A DNA stretch of 40,000 nucleotides from Amphritea japonica ATCC BAA-1530 (GTDB lineage: Bacteria; Pseudomonadota; Gammaproteobacteria; Pseudomonadales; Balneatricaceae): NCBI RefSeq assembly GCF_016592435.1, contig NZ_AP014545.1, forward strand, positions 1,518,693-1,558,692, in the 5' to 3' direction. Below are positions 13,513 to 26,646 of this stretch, piece after piece. The translations under genes and the position numbers were made by a program. The notes under the pieces were generated by a model, which saw only the letters and a list, made by a program, of their open reading frames with translations, had not been told where the DNA came from and did no database searches. Position 1 is the stretch's first letter; each line of letters begins with the position of its first letter.

Positions 13513-13538
13513 AAACGCGCCTGAGGGCGCGTTTTTTT
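13513..13538. terminator. bidirectional terminator between phnA and intI
   Basis: AAACGCGCC-TGAG-GGCGCGTTT followed by a T7 run. On the other strand the A-run becomes a T-run after the intI stop. Confidence 0.6.
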
Positions 13539-14496
13539 ATAGTAAGTCTAACGGGCTGGACGTTCCCGCATAATGTTCGCCTATTACATGAGTGTAGATT
13601 TGAGTGGTTTTTACATCACTGTGACCTAGTAGTTCCTGTACGGTTCTTATATCCCTACCGGCCTCAAGCAAATGCGTTGCAAAAGAGTGTCGGAAGGTGT
13701 GGCAGCTCACCCGTTTGAATCGGATCTCAGTTTTAGTGAACGCCTGTTTAAGTGCTTTTCGTGGCGCCGAATTATGTAAATGATGCCGGCATAACTGCCC
13801 AGACAATGGATGCGGGCTCAGCGTGTTTGACGGGAAAAGATACATCCAGCCGGGTTGGCGAAAAGCGTTTGGGTATTTTCTACCAAGAGCAAAGGGCAAA
13901 GAAGGGCCAAGACCCTGGCTGTTGTCTTCTTGTTGGAGCTTTATCGCTTTAGACATTTGCGCCTCAATGGCTGGAAACAGACTTCGACTTAAAATTGTTT
14001 GTCGGTCTTTATTTCCTTTGCCGTCGCGTACTAATAAAGCACATCGTTCAAAACAGATATCCTGAAGGCGTAAGCGCAGACATTCAGTAATTCGAAGGCC
14101 GCTGCCGTATAGCAGCGAAATTATGAGTCTGTGACGGCCTTTCAATTGGCTCAGTACCGCATTAACTTCTGCTGGAGTTAAGACTACGGGAAGTCTCCTT
14201 GGGCGTTTTGCTTGCTTAAAACCCAGTTCACCTAGCTCAATTTTAAGTATTTTGTGGTACAAAAAAGCTAAGGCGTTCAGTGCTGTTTTTTGAGTATTAA
14301 TGGCGACATGTTGTTGGTTTGCCATCCAGGATAAAAATTCTTTAACCTGTACAGGGCCCATATCCGCGGGGTGCTTCTTATGATGAAAAAGGATATAGCG
14401 CTTGATCCACAAAAGATAAGTCTTTTCAGTGCGTATGCTATATCCGCGTAATCTAATCTCTTTGCGAACCTGTTCCAGAAAAGGACTTTTTGACAT
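13537..14496 (-). CDS. intI: integron integrase IntI (tyrosine recombinase)
   Basis: Start set at ATG 14496 (MSKSPFLEQVRKEIRLRGYS...), preceded by AAGGAGG. Catalytic residues are present: GLRITECLRLR, HTFRHSFATHLL, GHSDVKTTQIYTHV. The IntI-specific insertion (LSGQLCRHHLHNSAPRKALKQA) is also present. The track ORF reaching 14730 is an unlikely 78-aa extension. Confidence 0.9.
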   Translation of the reverse strand: MSKSPFLEQVRKEIRLRGYSIRTEKTYLLWIKRYILFHHKKHPADMGPVQVKEFLSWMANQQHVAINTQKTALNALAFLYHKILKIELGELGFKQAKRPRRLPVVLTPAEVNAVLSQLKGRHRLIISLLYGSGLRITECLRLRLQDICFERCALLVRDGKGNKDRQTILSRSLFPAIEAQMSKAIKLQQEDNSQGLGPSLPFALGRKYPNAFRQPGWMYLFPSNTLSPHPLSGQLCRHHLHNSAPRKALKQAFTKTEIRFKRVSCHTFRHSFATHLLEAGRDIRTVQELLGHSDVKTTQIYTHVIGEHYAGTSSPLDLL

Positions 14497-14518
14497 AAGA
14501 CACCTCCTTGTGAAGTTA

Positions 14519-14818
14519 TGTGCATCTGTATGTATATACAGTTTATTTTGTTCTGTCCAGCAGTTATGCTCAGTTTGTCGTTTTTGATAAGCGTGTTTTG
14601 TTACTTCAATGTGTAGCAAAACATTAAGAAAACAAAGGGATAGGTTAAAAACGCTGGCGGGATAGTGAGCCGGGTTAAGAATGCATATGCGCATTCTCGT
14701 TTTTGTCTTAAAGGAGATCGCGATGTTCAATAATTCCTCTTTATTATCTGATAGTTATCCTTCTTTTCATCAATTCTTCCTGGCATGCATGTGCGCCGGC
14801 GTAGTATTAAAATGTTAT
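14519..14818 (+). other. attI platform 1 (intI/cassette promoter region, leader, recombination core GTTAT at 14814-14818)
   Basis: This is the region between the intI start and the first cassette. It ends in AAAATGTTAT, whose GTTA matches the R' cores of the attC sites. It is duplicated colinearly at 26325-26626. Confidence 0.7.
14526..14541. promoter_or_regulatory. LexA (SOS) box in the intI promoter region
   Basis: CTGTATGTATATACAG matches CTGT-N8-ACAG exactly. It lies 30 bp upstream of the intI start codon. Confidence 0.65.
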
Positions 14819-14827
14819 ATGTTTTAG
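14723..14827 (+). CDS. attI leader small ORF (34 aa) reading across the recombination core
   Basis: AAAGGAGA lies 6 nt before the ATG. Translation: MFNNSSLLSDSYPSFHQFFLACMCAGVVLKCYMF. A homologous ORF sits at 26531-26626. Below the ORF-track size cutoff. Confidence 0.4.
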   Translation: MFNNSSLLSDSYPSFHQFFLACMCAGVVLKCYMF

Positions 14828-14853
14828 CCAATGAGGTTACTTTGAGAAAATTA

Positions 14854-15051
14854 ATGAGAGTATTGGGAGGTATAGTCGGTCTGCTTTTCGTCTTAGGCTT
14901 TACTTTTATGCTCTCAGAGAAAGTGGTGACATCTTTGTCAGGGATATCAGGAGTAACCACTGGTCTGTATTTCCTGATTTTTGCAATCACAGGTGAATCT
15001 AGTTTATTAAAAGGAATTAAAGAAATTGGTAATAAACTCTCACACCGTTAA
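14854..15051 (+). CDS. cassette 1: small two-TM membrane protein
   Basis: Internal ATG of track ORF 14785-15051, because the upstream part overlaps attI. Translation MRVLGGIVGLLFVLGFTFML...TTGLYFLIFAITG shows two hydrophobic helices. Confidence 0.45.
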   Translation: MRVLGGIVGLLFVLGFTFMLSEKVVTSLSGISGVTTGLYFLIFAITGESSLLKGIKEIGNKLSHR

Positions 15052-22895: not shown

Positions 22896-22910
22896 AAGTA
22901 AAACCCTGGG

Positions 22911-22961
22911 GCGTTGTTCGAACGTCACAAAAAAACGTGACTTGCTCGTCGCTCGAAAAAG
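22911..22961 (+). repeat. family-2 repeat, Y module (unit A)
   Basis: GCGTTGTTCGAACGTCAC-AAAAAAAC-GTGACTTGCTCGTCGCTCGAAAAAG. It is nearly identical to 26236-26283. Confidence 0.7.
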
Positions 22962-22995
22962 CCCTCAAAAACCAACTTTAACACCTAAAAATATC

Positions 22996-23080
22996 ACCAC
23001 AGAGAACACCGAGAGCACGGAGAAGGACCGTTAACTAGCCTCTATCCGCTTTTCTCTGTGCTCTCTGTGTCCTCGGTGGT
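22996..23080. repeat. 85-bp imperfect hairpin (29-nt arms)
   Basis: ACCACAGAGAACACCGAGAGCACGGAGAA pairs with TTCTCTGTGCTCTCTGTGTCCTCGGTGGT. By hand count 25 of 29 positions are complementary, with a 27-nt loop. Confidence 0.6.
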
Positions 23081-23147
23081 AAAAGCTCTGAAGTAGCGGC
23101 TGGATGATCTGTTATCCTATGCGCTTCCCTCAAATAACAGCCAATCT

Positions 23148-24152
23148 ATGATGAGACGATCTTTTTTACCCCCCTGGTGGGCAAAGAACCCACATGTGCA
23201 GACGATTTTACCTGTGCTCACTAAGGTTGAATCCCCGGCACTTTCCCGCCAACGCCTGGAATTAGGTGATGGTGATTTTATCGATCTTGATTGGTTAGGT
23301 GACCCCCATAACGCCGGTAGCATTGTTGTTATTATGCATGGGCTGGAAGGTAGCTCTGATTCCCACTATATACGACGCTTACTGCAAGATTGTAATCGCC
23401 ATGGTTTATGCGCGGTTGTGCATCACCATCGGGGCTGTTCGGGTGAGCCGAACCGTTTAGCCCGCAGTTATCATAGTGGCGATACGCAAGATATTAGTGA
23501 CACCTTGGCGTACCTTAAAGAGCATTTCCCTCAAGCAAAACTGTGCGCTGTGGGTTATAGCTTAGGGGGGAATGTGTTGACTAAATATCTGGGCGAGATG
23601 CAGAGTGATAGCACCATAGACCGTGCGGTTGTTGTCTCGGCCCCACTGCAGTTATCAGCCTGTGCCAAGCGATTAGAAAAGGGGTTTTCGACTCTTTACC
23701 AATGGCATCTGATTAAGCAGCTTCGAGATAAACTCACCGATAAATTTAATCATCGAACCATTGTCGATCAAGCATCGGTGACGCCGAAGCAAGTCAGTAC
23801 ACTGAAAACGTTTTATCAATTTGATCACCGGGTGACTGCGCCACTGCATGGCTTCGAGGGTGTTGATGATTACTATGCTAAAGCCAGTGGATTTAGTTAT
23901 TTGGCGAAGATTGACCGACCAACGTTAGTCATACATGCCGCTGATGATCCGTTCATGAATGCAGACGTAATCCCATCAGCTAACCAGTGCTCCGCAGATG
24001 TAACCTATGAACTGCATCAACAGGGTGGTCATGTCGGCTTTATTGACGGTGGTTCTCCACTAAAACCACGCTACTATTTAGAACAACGTATTATTCATTT
24101 TCTGACGATAAATAAAGCTGTAGCTAGTGATGAAGCAATCGCTAGTGGTTAG
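23148..24152 (+). CDS. alpha/beta-fold hydrolase, YheT/ABHD1-3-like
   Basis: 334 aa. N-terminal FLPPWWAKNPHVQTILP, then HGLEGSS, the nucleophile elbow GYSLGGN, and late D (AADDPF) and H (GGHVGF). Confidence 0.8.
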   Translation: MMRRSFLPPWWAKNPHVQTILPVLTKVESPALSRQRLELGDGDFIDLDWLGDPHNAGSIVVIMHGLEGSSDSHYIRRLLQDCNRHGLCAVVHHHRGCSGEPNRLARSYHSGDTQDISDTLAYLKEHFPQAKLCAVGYSLGGNVLTKYLGEMQSDSTIDRAVVVSAPLQLSACAKRLEKGFSTLYQWHLIKQLRDKLTDKFNHRTIVDQASVTPKQVSTLKTFYQFDHRVTAPLHGFEGVDDYYAKASGFSYLAKIDRPTLVIHAADDPFMNADVIPSANQCSADVTYELHQQGGHVGFIDGGSPLKPRYYLEQRIIHFLTINKAVASDEAIASG

Positions 24153-24219
24153 ACGTAGCTTCGCTACTTGCCAGAACGTCGCTACGCGACTCGCTAGGAA
24201 AAGATTAAAAGCCGTAAAC
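24141..24219 (+). repeat. family-2 repeat, X module (unit B)
   Basis: GCTAGTGGTTAGAC-[GTAGC TTC GCTAC]-TTGCCAGAAC-[GTCGC TAC GCGAC]-TCGCTAGGAAAAGATTAAAAGCCGTA. It overlaps the hydrolase stop codon. Confidence 0.7.
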
Positions 24220-24240
24220 TGTAAATAAAGGCAGGACTCA

Positions 24241-24648
24241 ATGAAAGAGATCACACGAATTAATCATGTAGGGCTTCGGGTTAGAGATTTAGATACCGCT
24301 AGAAAATTCTACGAGCAACTCGGATTTAAATTCATTGCAGGTCCGGTTGGTCCAGAGCCTGCGGCTATCGTTGAGCACCCATCAGGTATCAATATCAATT
24401 TCATTCTCAACGCATCTGATGATGCTCCGGAAGATAATATTCTAATGAAACAGGATATAAAATATCCTGGCTATACACATATCGCGTTGGAGATAACTGA
24501 CGCAGAGGTCGTGTCTAAGAAAATTGAAGAGCTGGGAATAACAATCACTGAACGGGTAGAGATTAATGGTGCAAAATTCTTCTTTATCAGAGACCCGGAC
24601 GATAACGTCATAGAGCTTCATCAGGCCTCAAATAAGAGCAGTAGCTAG
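24241..24648 (+). CDS. VOC/glyoxalase-family protein
   Basis: 135 aa. INHVGLRVRDLDTARKFYEQLGF ... HIALEI ... FFIRDPDDNVIELH is the typical glyoxalase I fold signature. Confidence 0.8.
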   Translation: MKEITRINHVGLRVRDLDTARKFYEQLGFKFIAGPVGPEPAAIVEHPSGININFILNASDDAPEDNILMKQDIKYPGYTHIALEITDAEVVSKKIEELGITITERVEINGAKFFFIRDPDDNVIELHQASNKSSS

Positions 24649-24738
24649 TGGTTAGACGTGGCTTCGCCACTTGCTAGAACGTCGCAATGCGACTGCTAGG
24701 GAAAGACTAAAAGCCGTAGCGCGTTGTTCGATCGTCAC
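24644..24738 (+). repeat. family-2 repeat, X module plus partial Y (unit C)
   Basis: GCTAGTGGTTAGAC-[GTGGC TTC GCCAC]-TTGCTAGAAC-[GTCGC AAT GCGAC]-TGCTAGGGAAAGACTAAAAGCCGTAGCGCGTTGTTCGATCGTCAC. Confidence 0.7.
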
Positions 24739-24762
24739 ATTCACATGGGATATTAAGTCAGA

Positions 24763-25446
24763 ATGATCAAGCACAACGTTCTCAATAACCTGTTCCAAGG
24801 AAAGGTAAAGCAAAGCTTTGGGCTAGAGACAGGGATGGAGAAATCGCCTGTGGAAGGGGATATTTACCTATCTATTGAAGGCCTGGAAGGTGACGCCTGT
24901 GCGGATAAAAATCACCATGGTGGCTTAGAGCGTGCCCTTCATCAGTATCCATCTGAACACTACAAATATTGGTGCAAGCGATATGGGACAGGGTTTCAAT
25001 GGCATGCGCCGGGCATGGGAGAGAATCTTAGCTCTACGGGTATGACAGAGCAGAACGTTTGCATCGGCGATCGTTTTAGCTGGGGTGATGCGGTTATTGA
25101 GATAAGCCAGCCTCGCTCTCCCTGCTATAAACTCAATACACGGTGGGGTATAGAAGACTTTTCTATCCATATGCAGGAGATCAGTCGATGCGGGTGGTTG
25201 TATCGAGTGATCGAGCCCGGAATAGTCAATGTTGATAAGCCGCTTCGGCTGATTGAGCGGGTCCCTGACGCGCTAACCGTTCGTCAGGTATGTGATATCT
25301 ACTTCGGCAACCCACTCGATCAAGAGGGCTTGTGTAAACTAAAACAGCAAACGAGATTGTCTGATAGCTGGATGCAAAAAGTTGTCCAGCGTATAGACAC
25401 AGGTGAAGTTGAAAACTGGAATTTTCGATTATTGGGCCACGCTTAA
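24763..25446 (+). CDS. MOSC-domain protein (YiiM-like)
   Basis: 227 aa. GDACADKNHHGGLERALHQYPSEHYKYW and ISQPRSPCYKLN (conserved Cys) are typical of the MOSC/YiiM family. Confidence 0.8.
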   Translation: MIKHNVLNNLFQGKVKQSFGLETGMEKSPVEGDIYLSIEGLEGDACADKNHHGGLERALHQYPSEHYKYWCKRYGTGFQWHAPGMGENLSSTGMTEQNVCIGDRFSWGDAVIEISQPRSPCYKLNTRWGIEDFSIHMQEISRCGWLYRVIEPGIVNVDKPLRLIERVPDALTVRQVCDIYFGNPLDQEGLCKLKQQTRLSDSWMQKVVQRIDTGEVENWNFRLLGHA

Positions 25447-25487
25447 TCGTTCAACATGAGTTGCGTGCGAAGATTTGGAGCAGAAGC

Positions 25488-25590
25488 CAGTGGTTAGACG
25501 TGGCTACGCCACTTGCTAGAACGTCGCTACGTGACTGCTAGGGAAAGATTAAAAGCCGTAGCTCGTTGTTCGAATGTCGCTAAGCGACAT
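25488..25590 (+). repeat. family-2 repeat, X module plus variant Y (unit D)
   Basis: CAGTGGTTAGAC-[GTGGC TAC GCCAC]-TTGCTAGAAC-[GTCGC TAC GTGAC]-TGCTAGGGAAAGATTAAAAGCCGTAGCTCGTTGTTCGA-[ATGTCGC TAA GCGACAT]. Confidence 0.7.
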
Positions 25591-25599
25591 GATAGGCAT

Positions 25600-26118
25600 T
25601 TAGGTCGGTGCTTTGTTATCTGCGCTTGATTTTTCGGCTAATAAATCCAAATAACCCTTATCCAGGCCTTTTCTTGAAAGGTAGTTAGTACCGCCCTTAT
25701 GGATGACTATAAAACCTTTCTCAGTGGTCTTTAATTCATCAATATCGTTCCAGAGGATACTTTGCTGGTGGTGAGCGCTGTCGCTATAGATACCCTGATC
25801 ATCAATCCGAATATTGACCCGGCTACCGGCCCTGCGACTAAGCATTTGACGGGTTACCCACCAACCGCGTTTATAGCGAATAGATAGCAGTTCAACAGCG
25901 CAGAGGGCGAGTAGAAACCATGCAATATAGGGGTCAGACTCTTGGGCAAAAAACACACCGGCGAGAATGACCAGTATTATCACCTGACGGTATGTTTTGA
26001 GGCTGAGAGTAGTATTCGCAGATTCGTCAAAGCACTCAATGAAGTATTCACGATTGAGGATATAGTAGCTGCTCTGATCTGTACTGGTGCTGCTGTTAGG
26101 GTGGGCGGTGTCTGTCAT
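25600..26118 (-). CDS. YcxB-like membrane protein
   Basis: 172 aa. Two TM helices (VIILVILAGVFFA, IAWFLLALCAVELL), then a soluble domain with ILWNDIDELKTTEKGFIVIH. It is the only minus-strand gene in the island. Confidence 0.5.
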   Translation of the reverse strand: MTDTAHPNSSTSTDQSSYYILNREYFIECFDESANTTLSLKTYRQVIILVILAGVFFAQESDPYIAWFLLALCAVELLSIRYKRGWWVTRQMLSRRAGSRVNIRIDDQGIYSDSAHHQQSILWNDIDELKTTEKGFIVIHKGGTNYLSRKGLDKGYLDLLAEKSSADNKAPT

Positions 26119-26214
26119 ACTCTGGCCTGGCGATGTAAGGACAATGTTGTAGGAACGCTAGTGTAGCAAATCTGGCAAATGAAGCTTGATTAGTTAAAGG
26201 GCTCTAATCGATTT

Positions 26215-26283
26215 AGTCTTTAAAAGCCGTAGCTCATTGTTCGAACGTCACAAAAAGCGTGACTTGCTCGTTGTTCGAAAAAG
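26215..26283 (+). repeat. family-2 repeat, X tail plus full Y module (unit E)
   Basis: AGTCTTTAAAAGCCGTAGCTCATTGTTCGAACGTCAC-AAAAAGC-GTGACTTGCTCGTTGTTCGAAAAAG. It directly abuts attI platform 2. Confidence 0.7.
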
Positions 26284-26333
26284 TAATTGTCAAAAGTATC
26301 AATTCTCCAGTACTGTTATAGTTAGTGCATAGC

Positions 26334-26349
26334 TTGTATGTATAAACAG
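26334..26349. promoter_or_regulatory. relic LexA-box-like sequence
   Basis: TTGTATGTATAAACAG has one mismatch to CTGT-N8-ACAG. It is positionally equivalent to the box at 14526-14541, with a 3-nt insertion immediately upstream. Confidence 0.35.
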
Positions 26350-26530
26350 TTTATTTTGCATATAGCAGTAGTTATGCTCGTTTTATCGTTAGACAAAGGC
26401 TCGTTTTGCTGCTTATAAGTTTTGCAAAACTGAAGAAATACAAAGGGATAGGTATAAAACGCTGGTGAGATACTGCGCCAGGTAAAGAATGCATATGCGC
26501 ATTCTCGTTTTTGTCTTAAAGGAGATCACG

Positions 26531-26626
26531 ATGTTCAGTAATTCCCTTCTAAGATCAGATAGTTATCACCCCTTTTGTGACTTTAGCTCGGCATGCATAT
26601 GCGCCGGCCTAGTATTAAAATGTTAA
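26531..26626 (+). CDS. attI leader small ORF, copy 2 (31 aa), stop codon inside the GTTAA core
   Basis: Same SD (AAAGGAGA) and spacing as copy 1. Translation: MFSNSLLRSDSYHPFCDFSSACICAGLVLKC. 20 of 31 residues are identical to copy 1, with no gaps. Confidence 0.4.
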   Translation: MFSNSLLRSDSYHPFCDFSSACICAGLVLKC

Positions 26627-26646
26627 ATGTCTAAAATGGATCTCAG

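Follow-up and report, generated by a model that had tools for sequence, protein, structure and literature searches.

What holds a 43-nt non-coding block letter for letter the same in two integron platforms whose surroundings have diverged? The question is raised by a 40,000-nt stretch of the Amphritea japonica ATCC BAA-1530 genome (contig NZ_AP014545.1, positions 1,518,693 to 1,558,692 of the forward strand, hereafter the window), in which the 43-mer AAGAATGCATATGCGCATTCTCGTTTTTGTCTTAAAGGAGATC is found on the plus strand at 14677-14719, in the platform next to the integron integrase gene intI, and again at 26485-26527, in a platform with no adjacent intI. These are its two exact occurrences in the window; no further match was found there with up to three mismatches allowed, and shuffled sequences give an expectation of zero. 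The repeat around the block extends over about 295 bp (14524-14822 versus 26332-26630) at 78-80% identity. The first-pass annotation, made from the letters of this DNA, had reported the shared block and put its flanks at about three-quarters identical, and both statements agree with these measurements; its view that there are just these two platforms needs correction, as the genome holds six copies of the element. Our preferred reading, which we hold with about even confidence, is that the block would be a leaky intrinsic terminator or attenuator ending a platform leader RNA of about 125 nt, followed by the ribosome site of a leader open reading frame (ORF) that reads across the attI recombination site.

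The block and its hairpin

Within the block, the 5' arm AGAATGC (14678-14684) pairs with the 3' arm GCATTCT (14691-14697) around the loop ATATGC (14685-14690), forming a hairpin that we call P2. The tail of the block continues on the same plus strand with CG (14698-14699), five T residues (14700-14704) and GTCTT (14705-14709), and then come the Shine-Dalgarno (SD) sequence AAAGGAG (14710-14716) and an ATG (14723-14725), which lies 6 nt from GGAG and 5 nt from AAAGGAGA. The second copy has the same layout on the plus strand, with the hairpin at 26486-26505, the U-tract at 26508-26512, the SD at 26520-26524 and the ATG at 26531. A consensus scan scores both copies as terminator-like on the plus strand only; these coordinates and the scan agree with the earlier description of a 7-bp stem with a 6-nt loop, a T-tract and an SD before an ATG, terminator-like on this strand. 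RNAfold, which had been proposed as a check, predicts the hairpin at -7.6 to -10.5 kcal/mol, which together with its 7-bp stem and three G-C pairs places it at the weak end of the range of intrinsic terminators. As RNA, the sequence 3' of P2 reads CG and then UUUUU-G-UCUU, and the 2-nt spacer that thereby separates stem and U-run could be closed, in the consensus fold, by C-G/G-C pairs of an enclosing stem S (see below).

Conservation peaks at the block

We collected 42 distinct copies of the element from Amphritea genomes and aligned them with MAFFT, without fitting the alignment to any structure. The most conserved 20-nt window is 14691-14710, with a mean column identity of 95.6%, and the best 43-nt window starts at 14679-14683 and so nearly coincides with the block. 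No copy differs at G14699, T14701-14704 or T14706, and every subfamily retains hairpin, U-tract and SD; the P2 loop is variable (ATAT, AACT, ATTT, AACA, and a 4-nt insertion in the copy L043). Four other species served for a neutral comparison with this genome: identity is 36-47% at four-fold degenerate sites of the neighbouring intI, 82-83% in the element and 91-98% in the block. The entire non-coding element is therefore under purifying selection, with the block as its peak. Purifying selection on the block had been proposed from the two window copies alone, and conservation in related attI regions had been named beforehand as its test; in the Amphritea copies the block is indeed conserved.

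A predicted leader RNA on the plus strand

RNAalifold gives the plus strand of the aligned copies a consensus fold that begins with a hairpin P0 (GUUUUG.../...CAAAAC, 14595-14622), in which 98.7% of the cells are paired. It is followed by a nearly invariant purine-rich single strand, ACAAAGGGATAGGT (ACAAAGGGAUAGGU), at 14632-14645, which stays unpaired in the consensus fold, and then by a three-way junction (14647-14704) whose closing stem S, AAAAACG (14647-14653) with CGTTTTT (14698-14704), encloses P1 (14654-14673) and P2 (14678-14697). Over the 25 proposed pairs, 97.1% of the cells hold standard pairs, versus 41-52% when the partners are slid against each other. Covariation is scarce, one P1 pair appearing as CG/UG/UA and another as UG/CG/UA. 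Shuffling provides a weak control, at 7/500 for the paired cells and 23/500 for the covariation score, and the fold is a prediction for a family from a single genus.

The stronger evidence concerns the strand. A Watson-Crick pair hit by a transition becomes G-U or A-C, two outcomes that are about equally likely a priori, and the change that gives G-U on one strand gives A-C on the other, so a G-U excess points to the strand whose pairing is being kept. In the paired columns, 111 G-U cells face 8 A-C cells, and on a tree derived from the flanks and the unpaired columns, parsimony counts 37 Watson-Crick-to-GU and 20 GU-to-Watson-Crick events versus 7 Watson-Crick-to-AC events. The variants of P2 itself (GAGUGC, GGGUGC, GUAUUC, GCAUUU) are all of the G-U type. 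This asymmetry points to selection on the plus-strand RNA fold and argues against both a double-stranded protein site and a minus-strand RNA. Among the three roles suggested in the first-pass annotation (an attenuator, a binding site for IntI or a regulator, an RNA structure controlling the leader ORF), the RNA-level ones accordingly gain from the G-U bias, the variable loop and the invariant U-tract, while the binding site fits worst.

Several other structures and signals were considered. A terminator on the minus strand (P1' plus U5) was rejected, as the U-G pairs of P1 turn into A-C mismatches on that strand. So was a promoter inside the block (TTGTCT, 17 nt, TTCAAT), whose -10 is not conserved in other copies. 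Long-range pairing of the purine-rich AAAGGGAU with AUCCCUUU or with CCUCUUU in the ORF is predicted by the consensus fold, but the partner varies without clear covariation and we did not retain it. Inspection by eye gave no consistent covariation for a loop-loop kissing interaction between P1 and P2.

Proposed mechanism

A putative leader and cassette promoter occupies 14542-14570 on the plus strand (-35 TTTATT at 14542-14547, a 17-nt spacer, -10 TATGCT at 14565-14570). Across the 42 copies its hexamers are about 90-100% conserved versus 35-65% for the spacer, and the same arrangement of conserved hexamers with a variable 17-nt spacer stands upstream in every full copy, including L113, a copy only 57% identical. 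A free spacer between conserved hexamers is the signature of a sigma-70 promoter, and on this basis we infer the promoter and its transcription start.

In the mechanism that we propose, this sigma-70-type promoter, to the right of a LexA box, would transcribe the plus strand from about 14577. The RNA would fold into P0, the purine-rich single strand and the three-way junction, and P2 (AGAAUGC/GCAUUCU) followed by CG-UUUUU would act as a weak intrinsic terminator. The A-tract of stem S would pair with the U-tract, as in many terminators, and the C-G/G-C pairs of the same stem would bring the base of the branched structure up to the U-run. Part of the transcripts would then end near 14703-14708, giving a small structured RNA. 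The remainder would read through to AAAGGAG-N6-AUG, where ribosomes would load on the ORF that crosses attI and hand over to the first cassette, in the manner of ORF-11 of class 1 integrons. The block would in this way set, and possibly gate, the transcription that enters the cassette array, at the intI-linked platform and at the orphan platforms that have no intI beside them. Termination, read-through and LexA control of the plus-strand promoter are all inferred from sequence.

A more far-reaching version is that the leader of about 125 nt would be a genus-specific, signal-sensing regulatory RNA that gates the integron array and all orphan platforms; we regard this as speculative and rather unlikely. 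The signal could come from CsrA/RsmA acting on GGA motifs, from a small molecule or from SOS-linked factors. If it holds, the scattered cassette arrays would form one co-regulated set, independent of the integrase. As a separate observation, GGA motifs lie at 14637-14642 (GGGAUA, in the single strand), 14660-14665 (GGGAUA, in the P1 loop) and 14713-14715 (in the SD); their spacing and setting are reminiscent of CsrA/RsmA targets.

A number of results weigh against a terminator or attenuator. P2 is weak, with 7 bp, three G-C pairs and 2 nt between stem and U5, and the motif alone does not discriminate, as this genome contains 2,028 terminator-like motifs, 53% of them inside ORFs. Shuffling within columns still leaves 96.5% of the cells paired versus 97.1% observed because the columns vary little, and structure can thus barely be separated from sequence conservation. 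No double compensatory change occurs in P2 in the 42-copy alignment. The stem sequence is conserved beyond what pairing requires, so that sequence-specific recognition is conceivable. L113 has lost the original P2 stem and is left with a 4-bp palindrome and U4. Finally, no antiterminator was found when alignments truncated before the 3' arm were folded: the 5' arm of P2 stays unpaired and has no conserved partner, which leaves regulated read-through unsupported.

Alternative explanations

The explanation that survives best beside our preferred one shares most of its parts and differs only in which product matters. The unit from the promoter to the U-tract may be the gene of a trans-acting small RNA (sRNA) of about 125 nt, working for example through ACAAAGGGAUAGGU, with the hairpin as its terminator and read-through as a secondary effect. 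A promoter-like pair and a terminator-like hairpin do bracket a compact structured RNA whose purine-rich single strand is nearly invariant, the unit is multicopy and kept without intI, and an sRNA from the leader between the cassette promoter Pc and attI1 has been reported for a class 1 integron (PMC8876359). Yet no more than 20 nt further on come a conserved SD and start codon, whose distance to the crossover and frame with it are fixed, and this suggests that transcripts extending beyond the hairpin matter; the U-tract, moreover, has only five U. We find this explanation doubtful.

Slightly less probable, and unlikely in our view, is a post-transcriptional role for a hairpin that does not terminate: it might stabilise the RNA, be a site of processing or control access to the SD, by way of a GUCUU/GAGAU hairpin, of pairing between UUCCUCUUU and the SD, or of a GGA-binding protein such as CsrA/RsmA. 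When the 43-mer is folded with RNAfold, GGAGA falls within an additional predicted hairpin of 5 bp. Inside the ORF, 10-20 nt from its beginning, lies the nearly invariant UUCCUCUUUA, which is conserved whatever the frame and partly complementary to UAAAGGAGA; GGA is present in the single strand as well as in the P1 loop and the SD. The pairings that would mask the SD are, however, weak, mismatched and without covariation, about one third of the copies lack the GGA in the P1 loop, and these models have no need of an invariant U-run right after the stem, which a terminator requires.

The block might instead be a DNA site for a protein (as an accessory site of IntI, or for a LexA-like or other regulator or a nucleoid protein) that would recognise AGAATGC-N6-GCATTCT or the repeated ATGCATATGCGC. 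The almost invariant stem sequence, beyond what pairing demands, speaks for such a site, as does the fixed distance of 91 nt from the ATG to the crossover. In addition, ATGCATATGCGC, or ATGCAT(A/G)TGCGC, forms a direct repeat (14681-14692 and 14796-14807; 26489-26500 and 26604-26615 in the second platform), its second copy lying about 115 bp downstream, near the attI core. But about half of the family has AACT for ATAT in the loop and with it lacks the first repeat copy, which is part of the P2 hairpin: the palindrome centre and the 12-mer vary freely, and the stem is kept. The invariant T-run lies outside the palindrome, and the strand asymmetry of G-U over A-C is not what a double-stranded site predicts. 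The block contains no GTTA core and no LexA box of the form CTGT-N8-ACAG, it lies 95-137 bp upstream of the crossover, and it is conserved where intI is broken or undetected. Taken together, these points make a DNA site improbable and tell against the binding site for IntI or a regulator that the earlier annotation had listed.

Least of all, and very improbable, the identity of the block could be a by-product of recent duplication or gene conversion without function of its own, which a multicopy element open to sequence exchange within a genome might suggest. Yet the flanks of the same two copies are only 78-80% identical, and the block is no less conserved when species are compared whose adjacent intI genes have reached saturation at silent sites. 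The same peak also recurs in every subfamily, one copy at another conserved locus among them. On sequence comparison, the identity can be explained without gene conversion between the two copies of the window.

Persistence of the module where intI is broken or undetected

Two cognate intI genes carry in-frame stops, one TGA in G014:C1:1514667-1515623 and one TGA plus two TAA in G017:C3:925395-926351, and these genomes still have 3 and 8 platform matches, respectively. The element is also present in five genomes in which intI was undetected (G008, G016, G020, G022 and G023), and promoter, leader, hairpin and SD survive in copies without the attI core (L005, L006, L014, L015, L032 and others). 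Such persistence where intI is broken or undetected or the attI core is lost fits a function of the block in expression better than one in recombination.

In four Amphritea genomes a divergent subfamily occupies a locus that is itself conserved, flanked by a GGDEF gene and by a gene for a Zn_ribbon_TFIIB-domain protein (L064 4190-5066 in G021:C12, and copies in G005:C228, G017:C3 and G023:C94). These copies keep promoter, leader, hairpin and SD, have no LexA box, start at a shifted ATG and end in GTTG/GTTC. Their P1 carries compensatory changes (CUGGC/GCCAG versus CCGGC/GCCGG), and the TTCCTCT motif stands in a different reading frame. The most divergent full platform, L113 460-775 (G005:C156), retains the -35 and -10 hexamers with their 17-nt spacing around an unrelated spacer, P0 with a different stem sequence, P1, the attI core CTATTAAAATGTTA and the frame of the ORF.

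The leader ORF across attI

The leader ORF (14723-14827, plus strand, 34 codons) reads across the attI crossover. From its ATG to the G of GTTA the distance is 91 nt in nearly all copies, and 85 nt, in the same frame, in L113. The frame ends AAA TGT TA/N, and the cassette provides the stop, TAG or TAA in many copies. Most copies retain the SD together with an ATG or GTG. Each of the five intI-linked copies has the ORF open, and of the 25 copies of equal length 17 have it open through codon 30. Entropy by codon position is 0.77/0.64/0.66 and gives no sign of selection on the peptide. Judged from its sequence, this AGGAG-N6-ATG ORF across the crossover is an attI leader ORF of the ORF-11 type.

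A further conserved segment lies inside the ORF. TTCCTCTTTA(Y)TATCTGATAGTTA (14740-14763 and 26548-26571) is nearly invariant, at third codon positions too and whatever the frame, and contains GATAGTTATC, with GTTA; it may be an accessory site for IntI or an RNA element.

Anatomy of the two platforms

The integrase gene intI (13537-14496, minus strand, 319 aa) matches TIGR02249 with E=3.8e-123 and 411 bits versus a cut-off of 265. Beyond its start lies the LexA box CTGTATGTATATACAG (14526-14541), read from the sequence, where binding of LexA is expected from the gammaproteobacterial consensus. The box overlaps the -10 of the putative intI promoter PintI (TATACA at 14531-14536, with the -35 TGGACA at 14554-14559, minus strand) and abuts the -35 of the plus-strand promoter. 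CTGT-N8-ACAG is intact in four of the five intI-linked copies and in three orphan copies and half-mutated in most other orphans; the TGGACA of PintI is kept in intI-linked copies only. At the other end, the attI core GTTA occupies 14814-14817 on the plus strand, and homology among full-length copies stops at G/TTA. In the window copies it ends exactly at AAAATG/TTA, as expected for the attI crossover, and attC-bounded cassettes come next.

The second platform (26334-26630, plus strand), without an adjacent intI, comprises a half LexA box (26334-26349), the -35 (26350-26355), the -10 (26373-26378), the leader RNA, the ORF (26531-26626) and GTTA (26622-26625). R1, a covariance model of the leader RNA, scores it at 156 bits (1545089-1545225 in the window's genome, G000).

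Comparison with known integron platforms and leaders

Integron cassette expression is generally attributed to the Pc promoter, to where a cassette stands in the array and to signals for translation within attI. If a conserved leader RNA with a terminator lies between the promoter and attI, a chromosomal integron would have an additional gate at its entrance, at the level of transcription. Since the module also heads integrase-less arrays and survives broken intI genes, the platform may have been selected mainly as an expression device. Orphan cassette loci of another kind are the CALINs, which Cury et al. in 2016 reportedly defined as clusters of attC sites without an integrase. They resemble the Amphritea loci in being integrase-less cassette loci scattered in the genome, but the Amphritea orphans keep the whole platform of attI, promoter and leader, which makes the block comparable across many copies.

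A 2022 review of integron regulation (PMC8876359) covers sites for LexA, CRP, H-NS, IHF and FIS in or near attI, together with ORF-11/ORF-17/ORF-18, cassette-borne translation attenuation, the disputed 'aminoglycoside riboswitch' of attI1 and an sRNA derived from the leader. It describes no terminator or structured attenuator in an attI platform, and we found no such description elsewhere, in line with the first-pass annotation, which had taken an element of this kind to be undescribed for chromosomal integrons. On the sequence evidence, the block most likely is such an element, a leader terminator or attenuator in an integron platform.

The closest parallel is the attI1 leader with ORF-11, ORF-17 and ORF-18 (Hanau-Bercot et al. 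2002, reviewed in PMC8876359). There, too, a strong SD and a short ORF lie within attI, the ORF spans the crossover and is given its stop by the first cassette (TAG/TAA in GTTRRRY), the peptide sequence is unimportant, and the distance from promoter to crossover is similar (223-252 bp for Pc, about 245 bp in Amphritea). The two share no sequence similarity, however; the Amphritea promoter lies outside intI, the Amphritea ORF has 31-34 codons versus 11, and a hairpin with a U-tract directly before the SD has no described counterpart in attI1.

The proposed class 1 aminoglycoside riboswitch, or leader sRNA of about 300 nt (Jia et al. 2013; Anderson et al. 2020; PMC8876359) is likewise a structured platform RNA across attI, before the first cassette, that has been proposed as a regulator. 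It is the attI1 site itself and has no intrinsic terminator, whereas in Amphritea the structured part precedes the attI core, with a terminator-like hairpin at its end. The aminoglycoside riboswitch claim has been disputed in favour of translation attenuation dependent on ORF-11 (PMC8876359).

With the Rho-independent attenuators and riboswitch platforms (trp and pyrBI leaders, T-box, purine riboswitch) the Amphritea platform shares the succession of a promoter, a structured leader of about 120 nt, a hairpin with U-tract and an SD. It differs in that we found in the Amphritea leader no antiterminator, no leader peptide before the terminator and no Rfam match.

The LexA-controlled PintI of Vibrio cholerae and of class 1 integrons (Guerin et al. 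2009; Krin et al. 2014; PMC8876359) also has a LexA box over the -10 of the intI promoter, and the V. cholerae chromosomal integron has its cassette promoter in the region between intI and attI. But that Pc lies 65 bp from the crossover, is activated by CRP and has no described structured leader or terminator, whereas the putative plus-strand promoter of Amphritea is directly next to the LexA box, some 245 bp away from the crossover.

Distribution of the element

BLAST of 14520-14830 against its own genome gives the six copies, at 1.533, 1.545, 1.962, 2.627, 2.629 and 3.117 Mb. Among 23 other Amphritea genomes, 14 have a match and 11 a substantial copy, with up to 8 matches per genome and only one copy per genome abutting intI. 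BLAST for the element in other genera gave no match, and neither did R1 when run on 15 further genera of the family, with 111 genomes. When 185,579 species genomes were scanned for the exact pattern, the matches were in Amphritea and in two contigs of metagenome-assembled genomes, one labelled 'Oceanospirillales', which matches R1, and one labelled 'Saprospiraceae', which does not; a pattern scan of metagenomes added two near-identical copies and nothing more. In the searches made, the family thus appears confined to the one genus, Amphritea. Nothing in the window reaches the gathering threshold of an Rfam family, and relaxing the limit to E up to 10 for 14480-14900 gave noise alone. R1 offers RNA biologists a defined, structured and multicopy RNA candidate.

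The hairpin is lineage-specific and no general property of integrons. In 24 integrons of other genera of the order, a terminator-like hairpin occurs within 450 bp of intI on the cassette strand in 3 and on the opposite strand in 2, which is background level. A second type of Amphritea integron (L019 1100-1570 in G004, minus strand), with an IntI 64-69% identical, has a LexA box, TTTATT and the attI core GTATTAAAATGTTA; the region between them is unrelated, and R1 finds no leader RNA module there.

Some features accompany the orphan platforms. Modules that resemble repetitive extragenic palindromic (REP) hairpins (e.g., ...GTTCGAACGTCAC-A4-6-GC-GTGACTTGCTCG...) precede almost every integrase-less copy, in the upstream flanks of L002-L006 and L021-L041, and belong to the repeat family that fills the island between the arrays at 22897-26283 of the window. 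Two orphan subfamilies each have a conserved left extension of their own, of about 60-130 bp. Directly after a truncated platform copy, on the minus strand, lie genes for a RelE-family toxin and a helix-turn-helix (Xre/MqsA-like) antitoxin (L006 763-1367; G000 2628714-2629318).

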